Source: an uncultured Gammaproteobacteria bacterium (GTDB lineage: Bacteria > Patescibacteriota > Patescibacteriia > UBA1558 > GWA2-36-10). Taken from it: a stretch of DNA of 61,208 nucleotides. The first letter of the stretch is position 1, and the number at the start of each line of letters is the position of its first letter. Below, piece after piece: positions 6,001 to 35,805 of the stretch. Below the pieces are notes generated by a model. That model did no database searches, had not been told where the DNA came from, and worked only from the letters and a program-made list of their open reading frames with translations. Where the stretch lies: contig CAZWIT010000002.1 of NCBI GenBank assembly GCA_964633905.1, forward strand, positions 1-61,208, written 5' to 3'. Both the position numbers and the translations under genes were made by a program.

Positions 6001-9000
6001 TATTTATTTTGATAATGTCTCACCGGCAGTTTCTTCAAATTTAGGCTCAGACTCAGCCGCTTCTACATCCTTGACCGTAGTATCAACCACTGGTTTTGCG
6101 CCAGGCGATACTATAGTTATTGATGACAATGATTCGCCAGCTATTACCAGGATTATAGCGGCTATTGAAAATTCTACCACCTTGACTCTGACAGCTGCAG
6201 CTGTCACTGGCTATACCACAGCTCAAAGTGCTTTTGCTGCTAAGGGACCACAAACCGAATTACCTACAGGTTCAGATAGAAGAGCGGGCGTTTATACTAT
6301 GACTGGTTTGACTGGCACTGGTGCTGGTACGCAGGATAATAATAGAACTGGTAGAGTTAATATTTATGGTCAAGGCAGCGATAATTTTCGTACCATGAAA
6401 AGCGATTTGGCAGTTGATATTGACGGTAATATTGATACTGGTTATTTGGGAAACAATTCAACCGATGCTGGTAATACTTGGGTTGATGTCAAAGATAATG
6501 TAGTAGGTAATTGGCAGCCACTAGATAATATTGCGGTAGCGGGAGCTACTAATCAAGTAGTAGATAATAATTTGTCTTCCGTAAGAATGGGCGGTAATGA
6601 TGATGCTAGCCAATTTCCAGTTTGGACAGGTCTAGCTGGTTTAGGTCGTAATGCTTTGCCAACTTCTAATATGGAAGTTGCAGAAATTGGCACAGTACCA
6701 ATTACTAATGTTTATAATGCTGATTATAACGGTGGTTCACCTTTGTATTCAGTAAATTATGCTACATCTACTACTTGGACATTGTTTGGTGATGGGGCAA
6801 ACTCTGAACTTAATGATGCGATTTATTTTGGTGATCAGGGTACAAATATGATGTATTCATTGGAAGCTAATCTCGGCACCCTAATGAATGCTTCGGCAAT
6901 TTTTACTTGGGAGTTTTATAATGGAGCTGGTTGGACTGCTTTTACACCGCGTGATGCTTATAAATATCAGACACGTACTGGTCATACCATACCATTGTCA
7001 GCTAATACTACCAGAAATTCATATACAGTATCAGTCACCTCTGGTAATCAGGCAAACTTTGGGGTGGATCAAGTAGTCATGATTGACGATAATGATTCTA
7101 GCCCTATTTATCGGCGCATCAGTGCCGTGGCAGCTGGCGTAATTACTTTTACAGAGCCAGTAACAGCTGATTATACTACTGCTCAATCGGCCAGTATTTC
7201 GCGGCTCAATGGAGGTCAATGGAAATCTTTTGACCCTAGTAATTTTTTTACAGAAAATGGTAATGCTCCGCGTCGTATTTTGAGCTGGACACCTTATGAC
7301 TTGTCTGGTACGCCAGCTAAAACTACCATCAATGGTGTAAATGCTTATTGGGTCAGAGTGAGAATTTCTGGCTTTACTTCTTGGACTACTTCTCCAGTCA
7401 ATCAAAATACTCCAATTGGTATGAGCGGAATCGAGCGTATAGATTCAGGAGCTTTAAATGTGTCTAGCGGTAGTCAAGAAGCAAAAATTAGCCAAATTAC
7501 CACTGGCTTAAGCTATGACCCTAATGAAACATTTACTTTAGAATATGGTAATTCACCCGGCTGGATAGAAACACATAAATATTCAGCTGCTGCCATTGTG
7601 CCGCCCTCAGCTCCCTATGTTTGGCATATTCAGAATGGTCAACTAAATATTAATGAGACTAACTTAACTCATCTTAATATTCAAAATACTAATGTAGACA
7701 CCACTGATTATACAATGTCAGGTTTGGTGTATATGGATATGGTAGCTGATGCTACTAGTCGTCGTCTAGGATTTCTGATGCGCCAAAGTCTTGATGGTAA
7801 TGGTTATGCTGCTTTAATCACTAAAACCAATGCCGCTAATACAGTTGGCTTTTATACAACTTTGGCTGGTGTGCCAACAGTGATTGGAACGCCTACTTCC
7901 AAAGCATTTTCTGACAGTACTTGGTATTGTTTAAAATCACAGGTCTCAGGCACAACTTTGAATGTCAAATTTTGGGCAACGACCGATTGTAATAGTGGTG
8001 AACCTGGCTCGTGGGATTTTACTACTACTAATAGTACTTATACTAGTGGTAAAGCGGGCGTCTATGCAGGCTCTGCGACTTCTGGCTCTGGTACTAAAGC
8101 TATTTTTGACAGCATTAGTTCTGATACTGGCTGGACGGACAATTTTGATGATGTTGATTATTGGCGCTTAACAGGCTCTAGCGCTAGTGTAATTGGTAAT
8201 GCTTATCCAAGTGTTCCTTTTACTAGCTCTTATTTGAATTTTACTATTAAGCATAAAGGCGGCTGGAATGGCACAGTCAGGCCAGAAATAGGAGATAAAA
8301 TATATATTAGTTCTACGGCTATTAGAAGCTACAAAGGCTTGGATAGTTCTGTTGGTATTACTACTAATAATACTAATACTAAATACGAAGTATGGGATTT
8401 CGAATGGAATCCAGCAGCCTCCAACTATACTGTGACTGGTAGCGCTACGGGTGCGGCTGGTACAGCTACGCCAGGAACAACCTATACGGCACCTGATAAT
8501 AAAGTTTCTTTGCGTATTAATTCTGGTACACCAACAGCGACCAAGTTTGGTGATCGGATGTTGCTTTTACAAAATAATTATTTGCGTAATAATGGCGCCT
8601 GGACAGGTGTTAATGGCATGGGTAGTGCGGTTTTGATGCCGCCTACTTGGACTCTGACTGGTAGTCCTATCGCTACTAGATATAATATAGAGGGTATCAG
8701 TGGTACAGCTACAGCTAGACAACACGGTACTATTGATTTTTGGTTTAAGACTAATTATAGTGGTTCACCAGCAACTTCTACCAGTCCTTTTGGGCAGTAT
8801 TTACTGGATTACGCAGCCAATGGTGATACGGATCGTTTGTTTATTAGACATAATACTAATGGCAAATTAGAGGTAGCTATTTATGCTGGCGCTGCTCAGG
8901 GTACTTTGTTACAACAGACTTTTTCGGCTACTGCTGGTCAGTGGTATCACTTGCGTGTGGCTTGGCGTGAAGCAGCTACTGCTTTTAAACGCGCTTGGCT

Positions 9001-12000
9001 AGATGGTGTAGCTTTTGAAACTAACCAGGGTACTACTTTGGGTACTAGAGGTGCTAACGCTGGTTTATTGCGTATAGGTAATAATTGGCAATACAATGGT
9101 GCTTTTGATGGAGCTATAGATGAGTTTAATATTTTTGATGCTGAACTCGATACCTCTGGCTCTTGTAATTGGGGCAATTTTGATGTGCCGACTACGGTTT
9201 GGACAGGGGGTGCTACTCCTGCTAATTGTCCTTCGGCTACTGGTGCTAATATTTATCGAGCTAGTTTTGATACGGCTATGAATCCTCAAGAAGGCTGGGT
9301 TTGGGCAGACTATGCCTATGGCAGTCCTAATATGATTTTTACTAATGGTGCTGATACTGGTAATGAAAGAATCAGAGTTATTACTTATCCGCAGAGAACT
9401 AGAGTGTGGGTAGATAATACTGGAGAAAAGTATACGCCTTCAGCACGTATAAAATATGGTTCTGGTCACGAAGAAAATGGTACGGCCGCTACTCTAGCTG
9501 GTTGGGCGCATAATTTTACTTATCATCATAAAGCTGCTCGTGACTCTAGCTCTGCGCCTACCTATTCACCAGTTTTGAATCTCAAACGTAGTACGCATAT
9601 CTGGTCAGATGAAGAGATTAGTTATACAGGTGCTACTTTAGTAGCTGCCAATATCGTTAATCAGGGTCTTGGTTTTGGCGTATCAGCCGTTGGTTTGGCA
9701 GGTTTATCCAATATGAACTTGAGTCATCTATCAATGGAAAACCAATATAATAATTTTGCCGTGACTACTAACCCTTATACTTCAGTGACGCCTTATCCAT
9801 CACAGACTATTTCCAAATCAGTATTTTATAATTACTTTGATCGTGCCTATACTGTGGTCAGTAAAACTCAGGGTTCGAATATGGTTGGTGCTTATTTTGT
9901 GACTACTCACGTGGGAGCTGCCAATATTGGTACAGGTTATAATGCTTTTACTAGTCAAAATGTTGGTATTGATGGCAGTATTTTTATGGGGCATCGTAAT
10001 GCCTATGTGACTGTGCCACCAGCTGCTGCTGGTGGTGCGGCGACATTTGTGTCTGGTCGTCTTTATACCGTAGCTAATTCCGAATTTTATAATAATGGTG
10101 TGACTGGTGCTGGTACATCAGGAGCTTTAAATTTTGGTGTTGGTGTCGCTAAAGTAAATATTAATAATAATAAGTTTTCTATTAATACTAATGGCATTAG
10201 ATTACATGGTAATGCTTTTGTGGCTATGTCCGATAATGTACTTGACGGGCATGTTTCTGATGGCGCAGTAACAGTTGGGGCTGAATATGGCTCGGGTATT
10301 AGGTCACATCCTTCTTATTCTTCGGTATCAGTGACTGATGATGGTAGTATTTATGGTCGTGGTATGTGGAATGAAGCCGACATTAGTATGCCACCCAATA
10401 CTACTACTTTTGAAGCCGAATCTTTGTTACAGTTTACCGGAGTTGATACCCAGATTTTAAGTCCAGTATTTTTTGGCACCCAAGATTATAATAATATGTC
10501 TCGCTTGGGTGATCATTATATGGCTAGCACTATACCAGGCACTGACATTCGTATTAATTATTCTAGCAGTACTAAAGACATAGTTAATCAAAGTACTTTT
10601 GGTAATATGCGCACTACTGGCGCTGGACTTATAGATACCACTGTGCATACAGCCGGCGGTTACGCTTGGCGTATGGAACCGCAGAGTTCGGATGTGCCAT
10701 TAGAATATAGCGCTAAAGTTATTGGTGTGGCTAATGAACCCTTGGCTGTTACTGGTTATATTCGTGTTAATAGTTATTATGGTTCTAGTAATTTACCAAC
10801 AGTTACTTTGTCGGGCCTTGGCATGACGGGAGCTAATTTAACTTGGACAGCAGCCAATTCAGCTAACGAATGGCAACAATTTGTAGTGTCAGGAACACCA
10901 AATGAATCAGCTTTAGCAGATTTAACTATTTCTAGTCAATCATCTTTCGTAGTGGAAGATGAAGGTAGTAGTGAAGTAATTTTTAATCCGCTAGGTAATT
11001 ATTTACCGCCATGGGTAGAAGATGTAGATAAATCTTGGACACCAAATCAATGGGTTGGTTATTTATTTAAAGATACTTATGGTCGTATTTTTGAAGTAGT
11101 GAAAAATACACCTACTATATTATTTTTGAAGGGCATAGTAGCTCCGCATCTAAAGAGTACAACCATGACTAATGCTACGGCTGGTGATTATCAGCTTTTC
11201 AGGAGACCTTATGTTTATTTGGATGATGTATCGGTTTTATCAGGTACAGTAGATACTGGTACTTTAGATTTTTTCTCAGCTGGGCAGCCAGTTTCACCAT
11301 GGTTATCAACTGGTTTAACAGCTTCTAGTATTTGGGGAGCGCAAATTGGTTCATTTGCTGATATTGATGGCTCGTTTGGACAATTATTAAATGATCGTTT
11401 GGCAGTAAAAAGAGGTTTGGTGAGCGATGTGGCTGCCTCGACAACTTCTTTTGTCACAGATTTAACACAGGCTACATCTAATTTTTATCAAAATCAGACA
11501 GTAGTAATGATGAGTGGTCAAAATGCTGGTATTTCTCGCCGTATTTCTAGTTATAACGGAACAACTAAAGCGATTACTGTAGATGCGGCCTTGCCTTTTG
11601 CTCCGGCTTTTAACGATGAATTTGTTATTTTGAGTCAATATACCAATATTAGTAGTAGTGGCGGTGGTGCTTCAGCTGAAGAAATTGCCCAAGCAGTTTG
11701 GGAATATGTTGATCGAAAATTAACTAGTGCTACTTTGACTAGTGGTGGGGCTTTAGCTACTAGTGCTGAAATTGCCGCTTTGCAGGCTGACGTTACTTAT
11801 ATTAGAAATAAAGTAGATGATATTTATACAGACACTCAATATATTAGTGGTATTGTTGATGATATTTTGGCTAAGTGGGGTATTTATAGTGCGGCTGATA
11901 TTAATACTAGTTTAAACACTGTCTTAACTAGAATCGGGGAGCACACAGATTTATCAAGTGCCAATACTTTATTTGGTCGTAGTAAATATTTGCAAGAAAA

Positions 12001-15000
12001 GTGGGGAACGCAAACAGCTGATACAATTTTTAATAAAGCAGACGATGCTTATAATAAGATTAATTCCGTGCAAACAGAATTGGGTTATAATGGTCAGTCA
12101 ACTACCGCTTATCAAGACTTGCAATCAGTATTGGCTTATGTTGATCAAATGGAGGGCTATGTTGATACTTTAGAAACTTTAGTTGGTTCGCCAGCCGATT
12201 TATCTAGTGCGGATACTTTGTTTGGCAGAATCAAAAAAAATTACGAGGCTATTGAAGCTTTGAATAATTTGTCGGCCCAACAAGTTTGGGAGTATGGTAC
12301 ACGTACTTTGACCGGTGGGGTGACACTTGATGATCCTACTCAGATTTGGGACGTGGCTTCTGCTTTGCTTTCCAATTCTAGTTCAATCGGTAAATTAATT
12401 GTTGATAATTTAGATACTACTATTTCTTCACGCGGCACTAGCAACCTAACAGCAGCTGATGTGTGGTCAGCGGCTACTAGGACTATTACTAATATCGAAA
12501 ATGATGGTTTGGCAGCTTTAGCTGCAGCGGTTTGGGCTAATTCCACCAGGGAATTAACAGCTGGTGATTTAACTGCGCAAAGAGTTTGGGATACTTTATT
12601 AACTTCGATTAATACTATTGGTAGTATTGGCGTATTGTTAGGTACTAATATTGATACTACTATTTCTTCTCGAGCTTCCGCGGCTGATTTAGCTAGCTTG
12701 CAAAGCACATTAAATGGTTTAATTAGTAATTTAATTGTTGCTCAAAAAGCTGTTAACGATCCTAACCCTTCGGCAACAGAGTTTATTACAACTTTGACTA
12801 ATGCTAATGATGATTTTTATAATGATGGTGTCTTGGTCTTTACTTCGGGTGCCAATGCTGGACAGGTTAGAAGGATTACTAATTATGATGGAGCAACTAA
12901 AACAGTTACCGTTGATCCAGCTTTAAATATAGAACCAAATAGTAGTGATACTTTTACGATTTTAGCGTCAACTGCCAATGCTTCTTTAGACCCAGCAGCC
13001 ATTTGGACTTATGCTAATCGTCGTTTGACCAGTGGTAATTTAGATGTAGGTAGTTTGGCTACTTTGTCTGATTTAGAATCTAGCGAAGCAGCTTTAGGAG
13101 CTCAACTGGATACTTTGATTAATAATTTGATTATTACCCAAAAATCTATTAGCGATGCCAACCCTTCTACTACTTCTTTTGTTACTACTTTAACAAATTC
13201 AACTAGTGATTTTTATAAGGATGAAGTCTTAGTCTTTACAACTGGTGCTAATGCTGGGCAAGTTAGGCGTATTAGTAGCTATAATGGAGCTACCAAGTCT
13301 CTTACTATTACTCCAGCTTTATCCAATACACCGACTGATGGTGATGATTTTACTATTTTGGCTTCAACTGCCAATGCATCTTTAGATGCCACAGCAATCT
13401 GGGCTTATGCTAATCGTACTTTGACGGCCGGCACTTTAGATTCTGGTAGTCTGGCGACTCTATCTGATTTGCAATTAACTGAAACTAATTTAACTGACAA
13501 GATTAATGAAAATCAAACTCGTTTGGATAAGATTATTAGTAGCTTAATTGTTGCCGAAAAAGCAGTTAATGATGCCTCGGCTTCTAATGTGACATTTATT
13601 ACTACTTTAGCTAGTGCAGTGGATGATTTTTATAATGATGGTGTCTTGGTCTTCACCTCGGGTGCCAATGCCGGACAGGTGAGAAGGATTACTAATTATG
13701 ATGGGGCAACTAAAACAATTACCGTTGATCCAGTTTTAAGCCTTGCTCCTGGCAATGGAGATACCTTTACTATTCTAGCAGCTACAGCTTCAGCTAGTGC
13801 TAGCTTGGATGCAGCCGCAGTTTGGAATTATGCAACGAGGCGCTTGTCAGACGGCACTTTAGATTCCGGTAGTCTAGCAACTTTAGCTGATTTGCAATCA
13901 ACTGAAGATAACTTAGATCTTAGCATTACAGCGGTAGCTAATGCAGTTGATTTGTTAAGTGATGATTTAATTTCTATTAGGTCAACTGTTAATGAAAATA
14001 CAACCTCCAGCACACTAGCTAGTTTTGCTACTAATTTAAGTTCTTCGGTTAACGATTTATATAATAATGCCCTGATCACTTTTACTACTGGTAATAATGC
14101 CGGTGTAGCACGACGTATCGAAGACTATAATGGTACTACTAAAATTTTGACGATTGAGCCAGACTTGACGACACCACCATTACACGGTGACGGTTTTACT
14201 ATTTTAAAGACTTTAGCGGTGCCAGTTACTAAGATTGATACTATTGGCACTGATGTTGCAGGCATCAAAGATGATGTTAGTACTATCAAGGCTGATATTG
14301 CTTTGATTAAATCTCGTTTAGATAATATTGATGCCAATATTATAGCTTTGGAAACAGCAGTTGATAACATTGAAGTGAGTAGCAGTGGTAGTACTGTTAA
14401 TAATATTACTCGTGTTTATGAAATAAAACCGGAAGAAATGTTTAGCTCCATGAATTCAATTGCTTCCTCTATCCAAAACATAAACTCTACTTTAGGGAGA
14501 TTAGATAACAATACTTTGAGCAATATTTTATCTGTTGCTCAAGAAAATACCACAGATTTAAAATATGTACGCAATAAATTAGCTGACTTTAGGGCAGTAA
14601 GTACAGTGCAGCGACAAGTTTTAGATAATGTTGCAGTACCAGTTGTAAATACTTGGTACACATCTGGTTCGGTTGATCTCAATATTATGGTTTCTAATCC
14701 TGCTCAAACTCCTCAAAAAGTACCATTTAAAATTTATTTACCCAAAGAAGCAAAGTTAGAGCATATTATGGATGATGGCGGATTTAATATTCAGTATGAT
14801 ATTCAGCTAGATACTTTGTATGCTAGTGGTGAATTAGAGCTAGCGCCCGGTGAGTCGGTCAAGAAATTTATAAAGATGCGGGATATTTGGCAGATTCCTG
14901 AAGACGAGACAAAATTAGCTAAATCTCAAGCAGATGAATTTTATAAAAAATTAGTTAAGGGCGCATATTCTTCGCAAGCTTTACTTTTAAAAAATGACAT

Positions 15001-15997
15001 TGATACTAGAGTAGAAAAAATTGTTCGTACTCAGGAAGAAAACATTGCTTCGCCGCAAGACAAAATTATGTCTTATCGTGAAAATAAAGAGAGCTTAGCG
15101 GCAGTAAAAAGTGATTTAGAAGAATTAAAAGCTTTAATAGCACAGGCGGATTCTTCTAAAGGATTTTTAGGTGCCTTAGGTGGCATTCAGACTATTTCAG
15201 TTTGGGGTATCATAATTGCTTTCGTTACAGGTTTTGGTTTATTGGTAGCTATTTTGTTTTCAATGTGGAAACATCAAATGGCTATTGCTAGTGGTCAAAT
15301 GGCCTTGCAGTCACATTTGATGGGCAATAAAGCGATTAATTCAGAAAGAGGCTCTAGTGCTAAAAAGAAAAAGAAAAAAACAAATAGCAAAATTAGGCAA
15401 GAGCAAGTAGCAGCAGATTCTCAAAATCAAGAAACGATTAAGGTAGCTACTAATTTTAAGACTTATGTAAAACAAGCCTTTTCTAAATTATTTGGTAAAA
15501 ATAAAGTATCATTATTAGTATTATTGGCACTATTACTAATATATTTTGCTATTAGGCAATTTAATCTTTGGTCAGTGGTAGCCGGCTTAAATAATAAGCC
15601 AGTTAGCGAAAATCAAATAACAACAGAAACTTCTAGCCCTGATTGGCAGGATAAAACTACGGCTAATTTAAGTGCCGATGATGTTAATCTTTCTTTTGGC
15701 AATGAAGAAGGAGCTCTGGCTACTACTTCTAATCCTAGTATGCTCGCAACTACCACTGTTCCAGAAGAGTCTACTTTATATATTAATATAAAATCTACGC
15801 CCACGGGTTGGTTAAATGTGCGCAAGAGTGCTAGTAAAACTGCAGAAATCTTGACGCAAGTAAATAGTGGTGATAGATTTGAATCTATAGAGAAAAAGAG
15901 TGTTATTGGCGATGATTATGATTGGTATAAAATAAATTTTTCCAAAGACCAATCGGGTTGGGTTTATGGGCAGTATGTTGCGGAGATAGAGGGGTGA
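3095..15997 (+). CDS. Giant (4300 aa) membrane-anchored surface protein: ConA/LamG-like and beta-helix-like regions, internal repeats, coiled coil, two C-terminal TM helices, SH3b
   Basis: Uninterrupted ORF. LamG-like GTIDFW..WYHLRVAW..FDGAIDEFNIFD; C-terminal WLNVR..WYKI..GWVYGQYV (SH3b); five FYN..G.NAG..RRI..Y.G.TK repeats. Confidence 0.85.
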   Translation: MYKQALPSWRFRPSVQTKQRIIKTVELFFYFLVWLVKIVSSVLTAIGYILFISLVFITKNTWQLMPPLLRWLRFKSAPYLLNILRLTLKLIKASFLFIGRKIPVLELALRWLFKNIFLAFFYAFKGIYLVLATILKIIWYGFTIFFVKFLGFFGPKASYLYDNRAEIKVRANKQVKEYKLFLLWLAKPFLHFLPKKYEKKILPKTKKINQALSPVIGLSDFKHLLREPKQILLRRAIASWLVFFLVISTFGVASLTPLFNWLFRDRQPAYAATFTGAVKVSAGSTTLSTNGSWYTAMAYSGDGINGDAEAGTFNPIHPGPSATDGAAGALALGHVSVAATATYAAAQFIGFKPSDTGNLRGVQLILENLTITSLSNVDIVVELLSFPTASCTTSCTNYVTGTQGAYTYPSDTVVLRRAVKQFNQGLSGENLAPGQYGRGTFDFRFDPEVAVTAGAHYGFRIINMGAGTPVFGTWAANAPYGDFPTVNGTIRTIGANDIDLTNAPTINMPKVLAAHNGLTAAAMVAANSAAGVGLPTVRRTQNEHWTATYSSANANWTLTGTVSGTQTNKLTTPTTGGTGAAWVNDGVPFTTLTAASTASTVLCVASTSGFATNQTINLWDADTATVSLTVASVTNSHASCSDGPAIITTAATVVGFTPEKNASVAQAIWKNRIVQGAMTTLTADSAVSTRVCVASIDGFSAAVGTAASVQIWDNDTAPIVTHRIASTNASDGACPASGPSIILAANLTTAFTVAQGAMISEISANISNIGTPSDGDVLRFTSYNFTQNPIGLNSQLARTTSVVLAYAKSQALATSNTNYPFLSNRHIYFVAYGDANTTAPADGDIVIVGNGKSNADPYDSTNLTNDYTWLAKEQHVVSIDRSWDAALAYTGNYGAAIGDGAGTRGNFAAYSFNGGWVSAVITPGSKLTIADNTNKHYRLTIPGKIVLDSDAILAFGDSTDPLPASTHADIYFDNVSPAVSSNLGSDSAASTSLTVVSTTGFAPGDTIVIDDNDSPAITRIIAAIENSTTLTLTAAAVTGYTTAQSAFAAKGPQTELPTGSDRRAGVYTMTGLTGTGAGTQDNNRTGRVNIYGQGSDNFRTMKSDLAVDIDGNIDTGYLGNNSTDAGNTWVDVKDNVVGNWQPLDNIAVAGATNQVVDNNLSSVRMGGNDDASQFPVWTGLAGLGRNALPTSNMEVAEIGTVPITNVYNADYNGGSPLYSVNYATSTTWTLFGDGANSELNDAIYFGDQGTNMMYSLEANLGTLMNASAIFTWEFYNGAGWTAFTPRDAYKYQTRTGHTIPLSANTTRNSYTVSVTSGNQANFGVDQVVMIDDNDSSPIYRRISAVAAGVITFTEPVTADYTTAQSASISRLNGGQWKSFDPSNFFTENGNAPRRILSWTPYDLSGTPAKTTINGVNAYWVRVRISGFTSWTTSPVNQNTPIGMSGIERIDSGALNVSSGSQEAKISQITTGLSYDPNETFTLEYGNSPGWIETHKYSAAAIVPPSAPYVWHIQNGQLNINETNLTHLNIQNTNVDTTDYTMSGLVYMDMVADATSRRLGFLMRQSLDGNGYAALITKTNAANTVGFYTTLAGVPTVIGTPTSKAFSDSTWYCLKSQVSGTTLNVKFWATTDCNSGEPGSWDFTTTNSTYTSGKAGVYAGSATSGSGTKAIFDSISSDTGWTDNFDDVDYWRLTGSSASVIGNAYPSVPFTSSYLNFTIKHKGGWNGTVRPEIGDKIYISSTAIRSYKGLDSSVGITTNNTNTKYEVWDFEWNPAASNYTVTGSATGAAGTATPGTTYTAPDNKVSLRINSGTPTATKFGDRMLLLQNNYLRNNGAWTGVNGMGSAVLMPPTWTLTGSPIATRYNIEGISGTATARQHGTIDFWFKTNYSGSPATSTSPFGQYLLDYAANGDTDRLFIRHNTNGKLEVAIYAGAAQGTLLQQTFSATAGQWYHLRVAWREAATAFKRAWLDGVAFETNQGTTLGTRGANAGLLRIGNNWQYNGAFDGAIDEFNIFDAELDTSGSCNWGNFDVPTTVWTGGATPANCPSATGANIYRASFDTAMNPQEGWVWADYAYGSPNMIFTNGADTGNERIRVITYPQRTRVWVDNTGEKYTPSARIKYGSGHEENGTAATLAGWAHNFTYHHKAARDSSSAPTYSPVLNLKRSTHIWSDEEISYTGATLVAANIVNQGLGFGVSAVGLAGLSNMNLSHLSMENQYNNFAVTTNPYTSVTPYPSQTISKSVFYNYFDRAYTVVSKTQGSNMVGAYFVTTHVGAANIGTGYNAFTSQNVGIDGSIFMGHRNAYVTVPPAAAGGAATFVSGRLYTVANSEFYNNGVTGAGTSGALNFGVGVAKVNINNNKFSINTNGIRLHGNAFVAMSDNVLDGHVSDGAVTVGAEYGSGIRSHPSYSSVSVTDDGSIYGRGMWNEADISMPPNTTTFEAESLLQFTGVDTQILSPVFFGTQDYNNMSRLGDHYMASTIPGTDIRINYSSSTKDIVNQSTFGNMRTTGAGLIDTTVHTAGGYAWRMEPQSSDVPLEYSAKVIGVANEPLAVTGYIRVNSYYGSSNLPTVTLSGLGMTGANLTWTAANSANEWQQFVVSGTPNESALADLTISSQSSFVVEDEGSSEVIFNPLGNYLPPWVEDVDKSWTPNQWVGYLFKDTYGRIFEVVKNTPTILFLKGIVAPHLKSTTMTNATAGDYQLFRRPYVYLDDVSVLSGTVDTGTLDFFSAGQPVSPWLSTGLTASSIWGAQIGSFADIDGSFGQLLNDRLAVKRGLVSDVAASTTSFVTDLTQATSNFYQNQTVVMMSGQNAGISRRISSYNGTTKAITVDAALPFAPAFNDEFVILSQYTNISSSGGGASAEEIAQAVWEYVDRKLTSATLTSGGALATSAEIAALQADVTYIRNKVDDIYTDTQYISGIVDDILAKWGIYSAADINTSLNTVLTRIGEHTDLSSANTLFGRSKYLQEKWGTQTADTIFNKADDAYNKINSVQTELGYNGQSTTAYQDLQSVLAYVDQMEGYVDTLETLVGSPADLSSADTLFGRIKKNYEAIEALNNLSAQQVWEYGTRTLTGGVTLDDPTQIWDVASALLSNSSSIGKLIVDNLDTTISSRGTSNLTAADVWSAATRTITNIENDGLAALAAAVWANSTRELTAGDLTAQRVWDTLLTSINTIGSIGVLLGTNIDTTISSRASAADLASLQSTLNGLISNLIVAQKAVNDPNPSATEFITTLTNANDDFYNDGVLVFTSGANAGQVRRITNYDGATKTVTVDPALNIEPNSSDTFTILASTANASLDPAAIWTYANRRLTSGNLDVGSLATLSDLESSEAALGAQLDTLINNLIITQKSISDANPSTTSFVTTLTNSTSDFYKDEVLVFTTGANAGQVRRISSYNGATKSLTITPALSNTPTDGDDFTILASTANASLDATAIWAYANRTLTAGTLDSGSLATLSDLQLTETNLTDKINENQTRLDKIISSLIVAEKAVNDASASNVTFITTLASAVDDFYNDGVLVFTSGANAGQVRRITNYDGATKTITVDPVLSLAPGNGDTFTILAATASASASLDAAAVWNYATRRLSDGTLDSGSLATLADLQSTEDNLDLSITAVANAVDLLSDDLISIRSTVNENTTSSTLASFATNLSSSVNDLYNNALITFTTGNNAGVARRIEDYNGTTKILTIEPDLTTPPLHGDGFTILKTLAVPVTKIDTIGTDVAGIKDDVSTIKADIALIKSRLDNIDANIIALETAVDNIEVSSSGSTVNNITRVYEIKPEEMFSSMNSIASSIQNINSTLGRLDNNTLSNILSVAQENTTDLKYVRNKLADFRAVSTVQRQVLDNVAVPVVNTWYTSGSVDLNIMVSNPAQTPQKVPFKIYLPKEAKLEHIMDDGGFNIQYDIQLDTLYASGELELAPGESVKKFIKMRDIWQIPEDETKLAKSQADEFYKKLVKGAYSSQALLLKNDIDTRVEKIVRTQEENIASPQDKIMSYRENKESLAAVKSDLEELKALIAQADSSKGFLGALGGIQTISVWGIIIAFVTGFGLLVAILFSMWKHQMAIASGQMALQSHLMGNKAINSERGSSAKKKKKKTNSKIRQEQVAADSQNQETIKVATNFKTYVKQAFSKLFGKNKVSLLVLLALLLIYFAIRQFNLWSVVAGLNNKPVSENQITTETSSPDWQDKTTANLSADDVNLSFGNEEGALATTSNPSMLATTTVPEESTLYINIKSTPTGWLNVRKSASKTAEILTQVNSGDRFESIEKKSVIGDDYDWYKINFSKDQSGWVYGQYVAEIEG
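12809..13733 (+). repeat. Intragenic 112-bp near-identical direct repeat (12809-12920 and 13622-13733)
   Basis: 6 mismatches by eye, 5 synonymous. Confidence 0.9.
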
Positions 15998-26035: not shown

Positions 26036-26072
26036 GTTGTAATTATAACAAAAATAAGTTAAATAAAAAACC

Positions 26073-26196
26073 ACCAAGCAAGGTTGATGATTTCTTAATG
26101 GCTCCGGCAGAAAATTTGGAGTAAAAAATAATTTTCTGCACTTCGCCAAGATTAAAAAAATACCAACTAAGGTTGATATTCTTTTAATGGCTCCGG
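26073..26196 (-). repeat. Degenerate tandem duplication of tRNA-Asn 3' end plus terminator (89-bp offset)
   Basis: ttaatggctccgg at 26095-26107 and 26184-26196; aaggttgat at 26080-26088 and 26169-26177. Confidence 0.75.
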
Positions 26197-26262
26197 GGGA
26201 GGGATTCGAACCCACGACCAATTGGTTAACAGCCAACTGCGCTACCACTGCGCTACCCCGGA
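26188..26262 (-). tRNA. tRNA-Asn(GTT)
   Basis: GTTGG-CTGTTAA-CCAAT anticodon arm, GGTTCGAATCC, CCA; no intron. Confidence 0.97.
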
Positions 26263-26510
26263 ATAAAATTTTTAATAAGATTTTCTTTTTTATTTTTTTT
26301 CCACTTTTTAATTTGTGCTTCGCGCCTCATAGCCTCTATCTTATTTGTAAATCTTTCAAAATATACTATTTTTACTGGTTTTCTATGCTTGGTGTATTTA
26401 GCTCCATTACCACTATTATGTTTTTCTTCCCTTTGTTTTATGTTAGTTGTGTAGCCGGCATAGAGCGTATTGTCTTTGCAGCGCGCAAGGTAGAAAAAAT
26501 ATTTTTGCAT
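26253..26510 (-). CDS. Solo GIY-YIG nuclease (85 aa, UPF0213/YhbQ-like)
   Basis: FFYLARCKDNTLYAGYT..R..KHNSG.GAKYT..RKPV..VY.E....AMRREAQIK. Stop TAG is tRNA-Asn nt 8-10. Confidence 0.9.
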   Translation of the reverse strand: MQKYFFYLARCKDNTLYAGYTTNIKQREEKHNSGNGAKYTKHRKPVKIVYFERFTNKIEAMRREAQIKKWKKNKKENLIKNFIPG

Positions 26511-26542
26511 ATCATTTTTTGAGGTCGTTTTTGTATATACAC

Positions 26543-26673
26543 AATGTCCTTCGGCTCACTCTGTTCGCTCAGGACATTCGCCTCGTCTTTCTTGATGAGG
26601 GGTTGAGGCACTGAACAAAGTGAAGTGCCGAAACCATGAGCGAGGAGGAATGAAATGACGACGAGTCGAATGG
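26543..26673. repeat. REP-like palindrome cluster on the tRNA-Met 3' trailer
   Basis: gtcc-TTCGGCT-N9-CGCTCA-ggac; ggcac...gtgcc hairpin; 40-bp CCA-TTCGACT-N21-CGCTCA-TGG unit (minus strand) at 26634-26673. Confidence 0.75.
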
Positions 26674-26748
26674 TAGCAGGGGTGGGGGTCGAACCCACGA
26701 CCTCGGGCTTATGAGTCCCACGCTCTAACCAAGCTGAGCTACCCTGCC
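26671..26748 (-). tRNA. tRNA-Met(CAT), elongator type (Ile2 not excluded)
   Basis: CTCATAA loop, paired position 1-72, ends TACCA. Confidence 0.9.
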
Positions 26749-26840
26749 ACGAACTATTCGCTACGCTCAAGTTCGTGGCCAAGCCTCTTGGTTTAATACT
26801 AAGTGGCTGTGCCAAAAACCCGAACGAAGTGAGTGGTTTT
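26746..26840. repeat. REP-like palindromes between tRNA-fMet and tRNA-Met
   Basis: ccacgaact-attcgctacgctca-agttcgtgg; aaaacc-cgaacgaagtgagt-ggtttt. Confidence 0.7.
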
Positions 26841-26916
26841 TGGTAGCGGGAGCCGGACTCGAACCGGCGACCTCCAGGTTATGGGCCTGGCGAGCTGCCA
26901 ACTGCTCTATCCCGCG
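26841..26916 (-). tRNA. Initiator tRNA-fMet(CAT)
   Basis: CGCGGGA acceptor with unpaired C1:T72; anticodon arm CCAGG-CCCATAA-CCTGG. Confidence 0.9.
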
Positions 26917-26945
26917 TCGTAAAAAATTTGGCTTAATAATTCATA

Positions 26946-27006
26946 TGGTCGGGGCGAGAGGACTTGCCACCGCCTTTGGCGGGGTCCCGCTCCGCGGGAA
27001 ACCTCT
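26946..27006 (-). pseudogene. tRNA-Pro-type 3' fragment interrupted in the T-loop by a 33-nt insert
   Basis: Removing 26967-26999 gives AGAGG-TTCAAGT-CCTCT-CGCCCCG-ACCA: a perfect T-arm, acceptor 3' strand and CCA. Confidence 0.85.
26967..26999 (+). repeat. Double-hairpin mini-insert, copy 2 (CCACCGCCTTTGGCGGGGTCCCGCTCCGCGGGA)
   Basis: Same stems and ends as 348..382; only the loop regions differ. Confidence 0.85.
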
Positions 27007-27042
27007 TATTATAAATACAGTAAACCTTGTAAAAACTACTCT

Positions 27043-27119
27043 TGGTCGGGGTGACCCGGCTTGAACGGGCGACCTCACGCACCCCATGCGTGCGCGCTAG
27101 CCAACTGCGCCACACCCCG
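27043..27119 (-). tRNA. tRNA-Pro(GGG)
   Basis: CGGGGTG acceptor; CACGC-ATGGGGT-GCGTG; CCA. Confidence 0.95.
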
Positions 27120-27130
27120 TGGACATTTGC

Positions 27131-27237
27131 TGTGCCCTTCGGCTACGCTCAGGGCATTCGACGACCACTATTCTAATTAAATTTAAGCGGTCGAAGACCA
27201 TGAGCGAAGTTTCACAAAGTGAAACGGAGTCGAATGG
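27131..27237. repeat. REP-like palindrome cluster on the tRNA-Ala 3' trailer
   Basis: gccc-TTCGGCT-A-CGCTCA-gggc; 40-bp CCA-TTCGACT-N21-CGCTCA-TGG unit (minus strand) at 27198-27237. Confidence 0.75.
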
Positions 27238-27311
27238 TGGACCGTACAGGGCTTGAACCTGCGACCTCTTCCATGCCATGGAAGCGCTCTAGCCAACTGA
27301 GCTAACGGCCC
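27235..27311 (-). tRNA. tRNA-Ala(GGC)
   Basis: G3:U70 pair; CTTCC-ATGGCAT-GGAAG; CCA. Confidence 0.97.
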
Positions 27312-27335: not shown

Positions 27336-27422
27336 TGGTACCGAAGAGAGGACTTGAACCTCCACGACCTTGCGGTCACTGGATTTTGAGTCCAGCGCGT
27401 CTACCAGTTCCGCCACTTCGGC
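27336..27422 (-). tRNA. tRNA-Leu(CAA)
   Basis: CTGGA-CTCAAAA-TCCAG, long variable arm, CCA. Confidence 0.97.
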
Positions 27423-27756: not shown

Positions 27757-27887
27757 ATTAAATTTAATTATAATAAGATGATTATATCTGATATTTAATA
27801 TTTTGTCATATTGATTAAATTAAAAATTATGTTATACTAGGATTTCCTTTGTCCTTTTGCTTCGTTTAAACAAAGGAGGTCCGGGTC

Positions 27888-28082
27888 ATGCCTGAGCAGA
27901 CAACTCATCATTCTGGTACTTGGTGGATTTGTACTTGCTCTTGTCATAAAGATGATACTATTAGTTTGAAAAGGCAACATAATCATCACTGTTGTAGTGA
28001 ATGTTCGCAGTGCCATTTAAATATTGCTGGTAGTCTCCAGGTGCATCTGGAAGAATCTCATTCTCGGGTAGCCTCTTCTTGA
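27888..28082 (+). CDS. SD-led Cys/His-rich small protein (64 aa)
   Basis: AGGAGGT at 27874-27880; CTCSCH...HNHHCCSECSQCH; promoter upstream, terminator downstream. Confidence 0.65.
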   Translation: MPEQTTHHSGTWWICTCSCHKDDTISLKRQHNHHCCSECSQCHLNIAGSLQVHLEESHSRVASS

Positions 28083-28090
28083 ATTTTATG

Positions 28091-28121
28091 AACTCGCTCT
28101 GCTTTAGAGGGCGGGTTTTTT
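28091..28121 (+). terminator. Intrinsic terminator
   Basis: aactcgctct...agagggcgggtt plus T run. Confidence 0.7.
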
Positions 28122-28138
28122 GTGCTATAATAATTAAT

Positions 28139-35598: not shown

Positions 35599-35736
35599 TA
35601 TTTATTAAATTAGCACATTATAAATTAGCCGATTTATAGCCTTAGCAGCTAGAATATATCAATTATTATGTAATTTAGCTGCTACGGCTATTAACACACG
35701 GACGTAGCTCTAAACCCGATTCCCAGGAGGAAAGAA

Positions 35737-35805
35737 ATGAAGAAGCTGTTTACCCTCGTCGTCATCGCCCTGCTGACCAGCGCTCTCCAGACCGGCAAGA
35801 AGTAA
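35737..35805 (+). CDS. 22-aa hydrophobic peptide, type I toxin-like (not in ORF track)
   Basis: AGGAGG at 35725-35730; MKKLFTLVVIALLTSALQTGKK; 20 of 22 codons end in G/C. Confidence 0.6.
   Translation: MKKLFTLVVIALLTSALQTGKK

Follow-up and report, generated by a model that had tools for sequence, protein, structure and literature searches.

What are the hairpin-rich repeats that begin at the CCA ends of tRNA genes in this locus, and what ties them to the small GIY-YIG nuclease gene among them? The window, meaning the whole stretch of 61,208 nucleotides that was analysed, contains two element copies, E1 and E2, and a third, degenerate copy, E3, all in the tRNA operon. E1 and E2 are approximately 100-130 bp long and start exactly at the CCA end of a tRNA gene. 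The reading preferred here, though given somewhat less than an even chance, is that the element is a REPIN-like, strand-specific hairpin module and the cognate DNA-level partner of the GIY-YIG nuclease.

Composite elements in the tRNA operon

A preliminary description of this DNA reported short palindromic units of the pattern TTCGRCT-Nx-CGCTCA, and the pattern is as described. TTCGRCT-N(0-30)-CGCTCA has exactly 4 matches in the 61 kb, all in the tRNA operon. Chance is unlikely to account for them: the mean in shuffled sequence is 0.03, and 0 of 100 shuffles reach 4. Longer blocks common to the units, CGCTCAGGRCATTCG, CCATGAGCG and GAGTCGAATGG, are confined to these units within the window. 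The four units form the two composite elements, both on the minus strand. Each element has one tRNA-adjacent unit, and the minus-strand readings of the two are CCA-TTCGACT-CGTCGTCATTTCATTCCTCCT-CGCTCA-TGG and CCA-TTCGACT-CCGTTTCACTTTGTGAAACTT-CGCTCA-TGG. The opposite-orientation partners are gtcc-TTCGGCT-N9-CGCTCA-ggac (26547-26576) in E1 and gccc-TTCGGCT-A-CGCTCA-gggc (27134-27155) in E2. The covariance model R1, built from 22 elements that all come from other genomes, with the window sequences excluded, recovers E1 and E2 and has no other match in the 61 kb. The features of the operon, all on the minus strand, are as follows.

26253..26510, minus: GIY-YIG nuclease gene, 85 aa, UPF0213/Slx1-like (Pfam PF01541, PDB homologues, alignment)
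26542..26673, minus: element E1, whole, between tRNA-Met and the GIY-YIG gene (R1, 74.5 bits, E=9e-14)
26544..26579, minus: E1 c-unit, AAUGUCC-UGAGCGA-ACAGAGU-GAGCCGAA-GGACAUU (sequence and motif scan)
26575..26587, minus: E1 b', the 3' strand of helix S1, GACGAGGCGAAUG (inverted repeat)
26601..26635, minus: E1 s hairpin, GGUU/AACC then GGCAC/GUGCC (sequence reading and fold)
26634..26673, minus: E1 a-unit, CCA-TTCGACTC-N-TCGCTCA-TGG, the first 40-nt unit of the preliminary description
26660..26672, minus: E1 helix S1, 5' strand, CAUUCGACUCGUC, which takes in C75-A76 of the tRNA (inverted repeat)
26671..26748, minus: tRNA-Met(CAT), with the encoded CCA at 26671-26673 as E1 nucleotides 1-3 (ARAGORN; Rfam tRNA, 60.4 bits)
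26749..26843, minus: E3, a degenerate relative (sequence reading; fold z=-4.2)
27130..27237, minus: element E2, occupying the entire tRNA-Ala/tRNA-Pro spacer (R1, 75.8 bits, E=5e-14)
27133..27156, minus: E2 c-unit, UGCCC-UGA-GCGUAGC-CGAA-GGGCA, with a GCGNAGC mini-hairpin as its core
27155..27162, minus: E2 b', GUCGAAUG, pairing with 27229-27236, CAUUCGAC, at the tRNA junction (sequence reading)
27189..27200, minus: E2 s hairpin, UGGUC-UUC-GACC (sequence reading)
27198..27237, minus: E2 a-unit, with hairpin h1 GUUUCAC-UUU-GUGAAAC at 27210-27226 (sequence, motif scan and fold)
27235..27311, minus: tRNA-Ala(GGC), with the CCA at 27235-27237 as E2 nucleotides 1-3 (ARAGORN; Rfam)

The positions first assigned to the two tRNAs, 26634-26673 and 27198-27237, are those of the 40-nt units that overlap the tRNA CCA, whereas the tRNAs themselves lie at 26671-26748 and 27235-27311. 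E1 is composed, in order, of the CCA, the a-unit, the s hairpin, a linker, b' and the c-unit. Its s hairpin takes up the TGG downstream of TCGCTCA, and its c-unit combines a closing stem with tandem-GA internal loops and a mini stem-loop, x. The GIY-YIG gene starts about 37 nt past the c-unit of E1, and the last 10 nt of the gene overlap tRNA-Asn. E1 is homologous from end to end with the element upstream of the GIY-YIG gene in locus L026, where it follows tRNA-Tyr.

The related palindromes mentioned in the preliminary description do exist, at the position of E3, but they are diverged and undetected by R1. E3 carries CCAAAAACC-..-GGUUUUUGG directly after tRNA-Met (26841-26916), and has a c-like hairpin CACGAACU-UGAGCGUAGCGAA-UAGUUCGUG that ends at the next tRNA. 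In L006, the syntenic spacer that is the counterpart of E3 contains a canonical element.

All of the tRNA-operon spacers here fold into hairpin-rich structures. This is what an ordinary host feature would look like, with spacer hairpins serving as processing stems, terminators or insulators, and with the GIY-YIG gene as a coincidental neighbour, both favouring tRNA loci. Such an explanation is very improbable. Blocks of 8-19 nt recur almost unchanged from Patescibacteria to Acidobacteriota and Gammaproteobacteria, with variable stems, and the element is patchy, being present after some tRNAs only. An intrinsic terminator or simple trailer was rejected, as no U-tract follows the element and E2 has a tRNA of the same operon on either side.

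Architecture and covariation of the element

A conserved family of composite hairpin elements, found across phyla, includes both E1 and E2. Along the tRNA strand, the parts of an element are, in order, the tRNA ending in CCA, the a-unit (UUCGACUC, the variable hairpin h1 and UCGCUCA), a hairpin UGGNN..NNCCA, a variable linker, b' and the c-unit, whose consensus is YCC-UGAGCGA-[N or mini stem]-GAGYCGAA-GGR. Helix S1 forms at the tRNA junction, where b' (GAGUCGAAUG) folds back to pair with CA-UUCGACUC; in 38 of 38 relatives it is 8 bp or longer. The cattcg/cgaatg pairing proposed earlier for this junction is real, joining 26575-26587 to 26660-26672 in E1 (13 nt, 92% complementary) and 27155-27162 to 27229-27236 in E2. 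The a-unit is the hairpin module of the c-unit on the opposite strand, with the same core, and the element is therefore an inverted doublet, as had been claimed. The CCA had also been taken as a stem arm of the unit itself. Its CA does pair, but with CGAAUG in S1, and the 3-bp CCA/TGG closure is without covariation; the TGG is part of the small covarying hairpin.

The identical 40-nt length of the two tRNA-adjacent units, once thought significant, has no meaning, since the insert between the two motifs ranges from 9 to 37 nt in relatives and N21 is merely common in Parcubacteria-like genomes. The idea that the 21-nt cores are guides or spacers was rejected; they are mostly self-complementary stems of variable length, and neither 21-mer has an exact match among the viral contigs of IMG/VR. 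The single 3-mismatch match in the window, at 35725-35745, is purine-rich and resembles a ribosome-binding site with a start codon. Sequestration of the CCA and release of small RNAs, also raised in the preliminary description, are not supported.

The closing pair Y-R of the c-unit is a standard pair in every sequence of a 24-sequence alignment. The small hairpin UGGNN..NNCCA covaries in relatives, with C-G in 7 and U-A in 7 at pair 51-57. On the sense strand, 89.6% of cells are paired, compared with 28-41% after a shift of the 3' partners by 1-3 columns, and eight pairs have changes on both sides. RNAalifold picked only the conserved CGCUCA(U)GG / CC-UGAGCG pairing, which is without covariation and was kept as no more than a possible alternative or pseudoknot contact.

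Wobble pairs are unevenly divided between the strands. Hairpin h1 of the a-unit folds better antisense to the tRNA in 17 sequences and better in sense in 2 (equal in 17), and it has 12 G.U pairs antisense compared with 3 in sense. The closing pair of the c-unit on the tRNA strand is U-A in 15, C-G in 16, U.G in 11 and C.A in 0 (Fisher p=1.3e-4, with sequences counted regardless of kinship). Together, these asymmetries suggest that each unit is tuned for the strand whose core reads TGAGCG..AGYCGAA, a sign of strand-specific modules at the DNA level, though mutation bias or the repeated counting of related sequences could also produce them.

These observations bear on the main alternative to the DNA-level reading, in which the element acts as RNA, being both a structured tRNA 3' trailer and the 5' leader of the GIY-YIG mRNA. 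With the c-hairpin stacked on helix S1, the tRNA 3' end would be displayed as a defined cleavage junction, cut by the GIY-YIG protein itself acting on RNA or by a host RNase, and the c-hairpin would also control the stability or translation of the nuclease mRNA. This alternative is possible but rather unlikely. The well-kept sense structure, with its eight two-sided pairs, speaks for it, as does U.G in the c-unit closing stem on the sense strand only. However, the variable hairpin of the a-unit is tuned antisense, which a single sense transcript does not explain, and in sense the a-unit shows pyrimidine mismatches and A.C at the positions of G.A and G-Y in the c-unit.

Distribution and anchoring at tRNA and tmRNA genes

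By pattern scanning, the same element was recovered from 66 loci, 24 from a genome collection and 42 from metagenomes, belonging to Acidobacteriota, Gammaproteobacteria, Patescibacteria, Verrucomicrobiota, Planctomycetota and other phyla. The loci used for comparison were 1-15 kb each. The element nearly always starts as ...CCA|TTCGACTC of a tRNA or tmRNA gene. Outside the window, 33 distinct genes for tRNA or tmRNA, representing more than 14 identities, end ...CCA|TTCGACT, in agreement with the earlier claim that the units sit at tRNA 3' ends. The full element is present in 40 of 58 unique sites, and 27 of these 40 abut an ARAGORN-called tRNA or tmRNA at offset 0; most of the remaining full-element sites abut tmRNA ends or 3' fragments of tRNAs. 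Among the additional R1 copies checked in the loci, just two are without a CCA start (L070 4230 and L085 1800).

The CCA was thought to be the terminus of the tRNA itself. This holds for the tRNAs of the window, but in three tmRNA genes the CCA before the element is C71-C72 of the acceptor with discriminator A73 and not the RNA terminus. The junction can thus follow either CCA of tmRNA ...UCCACCA, which under the RNA-level alternative fits a cut defined by the element and then CCA addition. The element always has the same orientation as the tRNA and so must be transcribed with it. That it fills the spacers between tRNAs of an operon likewise means that it is transcribed, and this transcription and the invariant orientation and register to the tRNA count for the RNA-level alternative. 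Conversely, its sequence is kept across phyla that differ in their sets of RNases, which argues against recognition by a host RNase, and units also occur solo or in tandem away from tRNAs.

In Rfam 15, only tRNA and tmRNA models reach the gathering threshold in the window and 18 loci, in a search that included hammerhead, HDV-like, twister and GA-cis; 10 more loci, searched at E up to 0.1, match tmRNA models only. Below threshold, GA-cis overlaps best, with 18.9 bits where 34.7 are required. A self-cleaving ribozyme was considered because GA-[stem]-GA resembles stem II of the hammerhead, and it was rejected: the core is CUGAGCGA..GAGCC and not CUGANGA..GAAA, and no ribozyme model matches. Mimicry of the tRNA elbow was also rejected. 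TTCGACTC is T-loop-like and TCGCTCATGG is D-arm-like, but no stem closes the T-loop-like heptamer and the blocks come in permuted order; the likeness was kept as a resemblance and nothing more.

With blastn, an element had no match in PLSDB or INPHARED that would indicate a plasmid or phage origin. In viral contigs, no hit came from the c-unit pattern and 5 from the a-unit pattern; none of the 5 adjoins a called tRNA, tmRNA or GIY-YIG gene, and at least 2 are in apparently unrelated sequence. A literature search that included the motif strings themselves found no description of the element. The family is apparently undescribed and is found in many bacterial phyla.

The GIY-YIG gene and its link to the element

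The window protein matches Pfam PF01541 (E=5.8e-19) over residues 3-77 of its 85 aa, and phmmer against the PDB gives 1zg2 (BH0048, 7e-18) and 1ywl (EF2693, 2e-17), both UPF0213. Residues Y7, Y17, G19, R27, H31, N32 and E52, invariant in a 12-sequence alignment, are all present. By its sequence, it is clearly a member of the UPF0213/prokaryotic Slx1-like group, to which E. coli YhbQ also belongs, and is a stand-alone, minimal GIY-YIG domain. No linker with a C-terminal DNA-binding domain for site specificity was seen in the 85-aa protein, which is the catalytic domain, or in its homologues of 79-154 aa. The window protein has no exact entry in the contig index.

The element is the usual upstream neighbour of UPF0213/Slx1-like GIY-YIG genes. 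A GIY-YIG start lies 0-290 nt from the distal unit in 16 of the 58 unique sites found by pattern (~30%). In the reverse direction, 8 of 10 GIY-YIG homologues sampled regardless of the element have it between a tRNA and the start codon, so the association suspected at the outset is borne out. In the acidobacterial sample chosen by GIY-YIG gene, the element lies between tRNA-Leu and that gene for 6 of 6 proteins, which is further evidence against a coincidental neighbour, though L029-L031, where the gene is beside a tRNA and the element is absent, are in keeping with coincidence. In some loci, GAAGG of the c-unit lies 0-6 nt before the GIY-YIG start, as estimated by extrapolating the tblastn alignment to residue 1, and could be a sequestered ribosome-binding site, a point against the DNA-level reading. 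The pairing of the element with the small GIY-YIG gene suggests a repeat-nuclease partnership of a new kind.

GIY-YIG enzymes are DNA nucleases, and Slx1 is structure-specific. We know of no GIY-YIG RNase, which weighs against the RNA-level alternative. On the other side, a COG4123 methyltransferase recurs as neighbour or fusion partner of prokaryotic Slx1-like GIY-YIG genes, and one such gene is fused to a TrmH-like tRNA methyltransferase (PMC1564403). These links hint at an RNA role and count against the DNA-level reading.

Rearrangement and possible signs of mobility

The units occur in several arrangements, and this modularity counts for the DNA-level reading. In L005, a c-unit is nested within the hairpin of an a-unit; L008 and L018 have units in tandem, and L053 has whole elements in tandem. 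The module of element and GIY-YIG gene follows tRNA-Met in the window and tRNA-Tyr in L025 and L026. In L076, the GIY-YIG gene has no tRNA nearby and is embedded among related hairpin repeats. L056 and L058 differ in the presence of the element at the same tRNA-Val, with flanks that are ~98% identical; the difference is replacement of the entire spacer and not a clean insertion. The element has inverted ends, CCATTCGACTC and GAGCCGAAGG, and no direct target-site duplication was found at its junctions. E1 and E2, though in one genome, have only the motif blocks in common and are not recent copies of each other. Such divergence is more in line with purifying selection acting on a functional site than with active spread, and counts against the DNA-level reading.

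Some of these features would fit a homing site, with the element as the recognition or landing site and the GIY-YIG gene as a free-standing homing endonuclease gene. Gene-less copies of the element, or the tRNA flanks, would be cut and the gene copied in by repair. The element occurs with and without the gene at equivalent places, the arrangement E'-GIY-E of L085 supplies homology on both sides, and partial tRNA duplications lie beside acquired copies in L001, L013 and L058. There is precedent in T4 SegB (PMC2330249), a free-standing GIY-YIG homing endonuclease whose gene is packed among phage tRNA genes, is variably present between relatives and has tRNA genes as conserved flanks. Homing is nevertheless improbable here. 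SegB-type enzymes carry DNA-binding modules, whereas the proteins of this family are catalytic cores of 80-110 aa, a bare 85 aa in the window, that share with Seg/I-Tev-type enzymes the GIY-YIG domain and its conserved catalytic residues and not their DNA-binding domain. SegB is not known to have an accompanying conserved hairpin element, and the setting here is chromosomal and cross-phylum and not phage. In most loci with both, the upstream element is intact and not obviously immune to cutting. The position of the gene is kept in many acidobacterial contigs (at tRNA-Leu, and after secG in two), which fits vertical descent equally well.

Comparison with REPIN and IS200/IS605 systems

The DNA-level reading draws on the REP/BIME/REPIN repeats and their RAYT partners. 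Both systems have imperfect short palindromes whose motif blocks are conserved and whose stems vary, arranged as inverted doublets and in tandem or nested arrays, a single dedicated nuclease-type gene flanked by repeats, and a strand-specific hairpin signature. Unlike in REPIN-RAYT systems, the partner is a hydrolytic GIY-YIG protein and not a Y1 transposase, no GTAG-type tag is present, and copies sit at the CCA of tRNA or tmRNA genes instead of being scattered between genes. REP families are also species-specific, whereas the same motif blocks recur here across phyla. Tracking with a RAYT gene alone does not apply: no Y1_Tnp turned up when window ORFs of 100 aa or more (bar five overlapping longer ORFs or tRNA genes) and several shorter ones were scanned with Pfam, the 4300-aa ORF over its first 2000 aa.

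The ends of IS200/IS605 elements and PATEs are also similar, with strand-specific subterminal DNA hairpins, placement directly 3' of a short word in one orientation, and an internal TGG complementary to the flanking CCA. They differ in that no TnpA or TnpB is present here and the two hairpins are on opposite strands. GIY-YIG nucleases are hydrolytic and are not known transposases, and an enzyme of this kind is unable to perform HUH-type strand transfer.

Proposed mechanism

In the DNA-level reading, each unit would form a strand-specific single-stranded or cruciform hairpin with a GCGNAGC or tandem G.A core. The sequence d(GCGNAGC) forms unusually stable DNA mini-hairpins. A structure-specific nuclease would recognise and nick the hairpin, and nick- or break-induced recombination would copy, duplicate and rearrange units, with or without the nuclease gene, and place them at tRNA 3' ends. 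These ends may be suitable sites in that the CCA would complete the closing stem of the a-unit, the flank is conserved and transcription would be strong. That the GIY-YIG nuclease spreads the units is something we infer.

A further, unlikely proposal is that nucleic-acid structure, and not a protein domain, gives a bare Slx1-like GIY-YIG domain its specificity, in one of two forms. The first could be a mobile or 'addictive' module, with the element on the 3' ends of essential tRNA and tmRNA genes and the cognate nuclease needed for resolution; the cut would fall at the junction of S1 and the c-hairpin and release the tRNA end. The second could be a hairpin-guided DNA nicking system that copies itself to tRNA CCA ends.

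Significance for the UPF0213 family and for tRNA operons

The element is a cross-phylum structured element absent from Rfam, and in some Patescibacteria it makes up a large share of tRNA-operon spacers. In some tmRNA genes, it stands in place of the encoded CCA, which matters for how tRNA and tmRNA mature and for the annotation of genomes from uncultured lineages. UPF0213/Slx1-like GIY-YIG proteins are widespread and their structures date from two decades ago; no accepted function or substrate was found, nor was a nucleic-acid partner or genomic anchoring reported in the searchable literature. The family now gains a sequence-defined, conserved nucleic-acid partner located precisely in the genome, at the CCA end of tRNA and tmRNA genes, so that UPF0213 function becomes directly testable by binding and cleavage on a ~40-nt hairpin. 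If the first form of the proposal is true, this would be the first GIY-YIG enzyme in tRNA 3' maturation. If the second is true, it would be a repeat-nuclease replicator analogous to REPIN-RAYT but with different chemistry.

A composite element at tRNA 3' ends

The window is AT-rich (~33% GC) and carries the housekeeping genes dnaG, rpoD, parAB, topA, ileS and metG. Six tRNA genes form an operon on the minus strand in the order Leu-Ala-Pro-Met-Met-(GIY-YIG ORF)-Asn, and two of them are followed by an element (E1 and E2).

Features of the tRNA operon
27336-27422, minus strand, tRNA-Leu
27235-27311, minus strand, tRNA-Ala
27130-27237, minus strand, element E2
27043-27119, minus strand, tRNA-Pro
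26841-26916, minus strand, tRNA-Met
26671-26748, minus strand, tRNA-Met
26542-26673, minus strand, element E1
26253-26510, minus strand, GIY-YIG ORF (85 aa)
26188-26262, minus strand, tRNA-Asn

Directly 3' of tRNA-Met (26671) and of tRNA-Ala lies CCA-TTCGACT-N21-CGCTCA-TGG, with an inverted partner, TTCGGCT-N9/N1-CGCTCA, 60-90 nt further along. This confirms the units of the preliminary description. Their motif occurs 4 times in the 61 kb, where 0.03 matches would be expected, and the longer blocks common to E1 and E2 are absent from the rest of the window. Block-by-block alignment shows that E1 and E2 are two copies of one composite element. On the tRNA strand, its parts are CCA, UUCGACUC, a variable segment that forms a hairpin (h1), UCGCUCA, a small hairpin started by UGG, a variable linker, b', and the distal c-unit. 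The b' segment, (GAGU)CGAAUG, is complementary to CA-UUCGAC(UC) at the tRNA junction, and the c-unit reads YCC-UGAGCGA-x-GAGCCGAA-GGR, where x is a mini-stem.

The E1 core (26643-26663) reads AGGAGGAATGAAATGACGACG on the plus strand and resembles a ribosome-binding site with a start codon. Its sole near match in the window (35725-35745, 3 mismatches) is purine-rich, ribosome-binding-site-like, and intergenic, just upstream of a RelA/SpoT-family gene. CCUCCU, which resembles an anti-Shine-Dalgarno sequence, occurs on the tRNA strand in both E1 and the element of locus L026.

Elsewhere in the operon, the GIY-YIG ORF enters tRNA-Asn by 10 nt (26253-26262), so that the 5' end of the tRNA gene encodes the C-terminal KNFIPG of the protein; the homologue P0003 ends identically. 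A 44-nt direct repeat (26064-26107 and 26153-26196, 82% identical, copies 89 nt apart) consists of the final 9 nt of tRNA-Asn and its terminator-like trailer. It has the look of an old duplication of the tRNA-Asn 3' end, of att type or by slippage. The tRNA-Pro/tRNA-Met spacer holds a tRNA 3'-half-like fragment (..GGCAAGTCCTCTCGCCCCGACCA; 26946-27000, minus strand) that neither ARAGORN nor Rfam calls. Between the operon and xth, a non-coding stretch of ~285 nt (~27838-28122, plus strand; fold z-score -2.5) holds AAAGGAGGTCCGGGTC, similar to helix P4 of RNase P, and a terminator-like end. Rfam has no match in this stretch, which may encode an RNase P RNA of reduced size or some other ncRNA. Farther away is a 4300-aa ORF (3095-15997); Pfam gave no match for its first 2000 residues.

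Distribution and anchoring to CCA

Species-representative genomes were scanned with the partner-unit pattern alone, TTCGGCT-N0-12-CGCTCAGGRCATTCG, which carries no tRNA information. The scan gave 24 loci, in Acidobacteriota, Gammaproteobacteria, Patescibacteria, Peribacteria, Verrucomicrobiota, Phycisphaerae, Myxococcota and others, and a metagenome collection gave 42 further loci. After duplicate removal there were 58 sites, 40 with the full element. Zero-offset contact with a tRNA or tmRNA called by ARAGORN was found for 27 of the 40; the remaining full elements lie mostly at the ends of tmRNAs, at tRNAs truncated by the edge of the locus, or at 3' fragments of tRNAs (e.g., L001, L009, L013, L022, L043, L048, L062, and L075), and only L053 and L070 have no tRNA-like flank. 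The proposed link to tRNA 3' ends extends to 33 distinct tRNA or tmRNA genes that end in ...CCA|TTCGACT (Met, Ala, Gly, Leu, Lys, Arg, Ser, Thr, Tyr, Val, Asn, Phe, Ile, SeC, and tmRNA).

The CCA is not supplied by the element, because 29 of 30 neighboring element-free tRNAs also encode it. In L018, L049, and L064, whose tmRNA genes have no encoded terminal CCA, the element begins directly after discriminator A73, and the CCA before TTCGACTC is acceptor C71-C72 plus A73. In the tmRNA genes of L022, L043, and L062, by contrast, the junction follows the true CCA. It is therefore the word CCA beside an acceptor helix, rather than the end of the RNA, that sets the junction.

A covariance model of the element (R1), built from 22 elements of other genomes with the window sequences excluded, scored E2 at 75.8 bits (E=5e-14) and E1 at 74.5 bits (E=9e-14), with weak signals from the opposite strand of the two elements (22.4 and 19.1 bits). 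Across the whole 61 kb, nothing else was better than an E of about 3. Applied to the loci, the model found additional, non-seed copies; among those checked, only L070 4230 and L085 1800 start elsewhere than at a tRNA CCA. The palindromes at 26749-26843, previously taken as related, were missed by R1, although a canonical copy in the syntenic spacer of L006 marks them as a decayed relative.

Association with a GIY-YIG nuclease

The window GIY-YIG protein is a member of UPF0213 (PDB 1zg2 and 1ywl), the prokaryotic Slx1-like minimal GIY-YIG group, and has the residues invariant in the family alignment. With this protein as the tblastn query, a homologue was found in 10 of the first 24 loci. At 16 of the 58 unique sites, a homologue starts 0-290 nt past the c-unit, and these sites keep the window order of tRNA, element, and GIY-YIG gene. 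The suspected association also held when the gene was the starting point. Acidobacterial-type homologues, picked solely for long contigs, gave tRNA-Leu-CCA, element, and GIY-YIG gene in 6/6 cases (P0124, P0137, P0158, P0195, P0205, and P0224), with secG just upstream in two. Among Patescibacteria-type homologues, P0008 and P0030 lie in the order tRNA-Tyr, variant element, GIY-YIG gene, tRNA-Thr; P0034 follows tRNA-Tyr after 16 nt with the element absent, and P0104 has no tRNA and no element. Neither a RAYT nor a Y1 transposase came up in Pfam scans of the window's ORFs.

In the acidobacterial loci L082, L085, L086, and L087, the GIY-YIG start codon is preceded at about 5-20 nt by a conserved palindrome, GACGATGGCATCGTC, which is also present in L061 and L075 and could serve as an operator or translation signal. 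In L026-L031, a truncated tRNA-Thr 5' half directly follows the GIY-YIG gene, with an intact tRNA-Thr and a gene for a tyrosine integrase after it, as if an integrative element had entered tRNA-Thr beside the module.

Pairing and strand preference

Pairs were counted on the tRNA strand in a MAFFT alignment of 24 elements. The proposed structure pairs 89.6% of cells, against 28-41% with the 3' partners slid by 1-3 columns, and 0/500 shuffles reach the observed value. Eight pairs have changes on both sides. The helix between b' and the tRNA junction (S1) has at least 8 bp in 38/38 elements, often 10-23 bp, and its strands change together in variant subfamilies (e.g., CACUC/GAGUG in L026). The small hairpin covaries, with one pair as C-G (7) or U-A (7), and so does the x mini-stem, as G-C (7), A-U (4), and C-G (1). 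The c-unit closing pair is always paired in this alignment (C-G 10, U.G 8, U-A 6); a larger set gave U-A 15, C-G 16, U.G 11, and C.A 0 (Fisher p=1.3e-4, relatedness ignored). The c-unit core, UGA-GCG[N | A-stem-G]AGC-CGAA, forms a GCGNAGC mini-hairpin or tandem G.A pairs, with a second GA/GA loop flanking. The 3-bp CCA/UGG closure of the preliminary description did not stand, as it lacks covariation and competes with S1 and the small hairpin. An ordinary spacer is a very improbable reading of the element.

The tRNA-adjacent a-unit is the c-unit motif on the opposite strand. The h1 hairpin gains stability when read antisense to the tRNA (17 vs 2, equal in 17; G.U pairs 12 vs 3), and the whole element tends to fold better as antisense (27/40). 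The c-unit, by contrast, has its wobble pairs on the sense strand. The two units therefore each seem tuned for the strand reading TGAGCG..AGYCGAA, although mutation bias and related sequences could contribute to these asymmetries. A DNA hairpin or cruciform recognized strand-specifically, by analogy with REP and IS200-type systems, would explain such tuning, which a single sense transcript leaves unexplained. An RNA trailer or leader is the less likely reading. It is kept alive by PMC1564403, which described stand-alone prokaryotic Slx1-like GIY-YIG genes that recurrently adjoin a COG4123 methyltransferase or are fused to it, as well as a single fusion to a TrmH-like tRNA methyltransferase, and which suggested a role in RNA metabolism.

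Signs of turnover, and related repeats

The window's element and GIY-YIG module after tRNA-Met is homologous over its whole length to the tRNA-Tyr module in L025 and L026. L056 and L058 have an identical tRNA-Val and flanks ~98% identical, but one has the element and the other a 66-nt AT-rich spacer, with divergence beginning exactly after CCA. Other arrangements include an a-unit hairpin with a c-unit nested inside (L005), tandem units (L008 and L018), two elements in tandem (L053), and the order E'-GIY-E (L085). A homing-site model for the element and nuclease is improbable.

L076 has a GIY-YIG gene with no tRNA nearby and related repeats on both sides, of the type CCGTTCGYCC-TGAGC..TCGAA-GGRCGAACGG. 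Clustered GC-rich hairpin repeats (CCGTTCGYCC-TGAGC-YTG-TCGAA-GGRCGAACGG) occur in L016, L042, L054, L065, and L076, with solo c-units among them in the first four. These repeats and the c-unit have a common core, YCC-TGAGC..TCGAA-GGR.

Relation to known systems

No family in Rfam 15 corresponds to the element, BLAST against plasmids and phages gave no match, and a full-text literature search, motif strings included, found no description of it. Its closest analogues are REP/REPIN-RAYT and T4 SegB (PMC2330249). The first shares the logic but uses another enzyme and is not anchored at tRNAs. The second is likewise a GIY-YIG gene among clustered tRNA genes; it differs in carrying a DNA-binding domain and in lacking a hairpin element.

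Membership of the two units in a conserved element family that spans phyla, is anchored at CCA, and is tied to UPF0213 GIY-YIG genes is close to certain. We infer how this family works: somewhat short of an even chance, the element and a structure-specific GIY-YIG nuclease would be REPIN-like partners at the DNA level.
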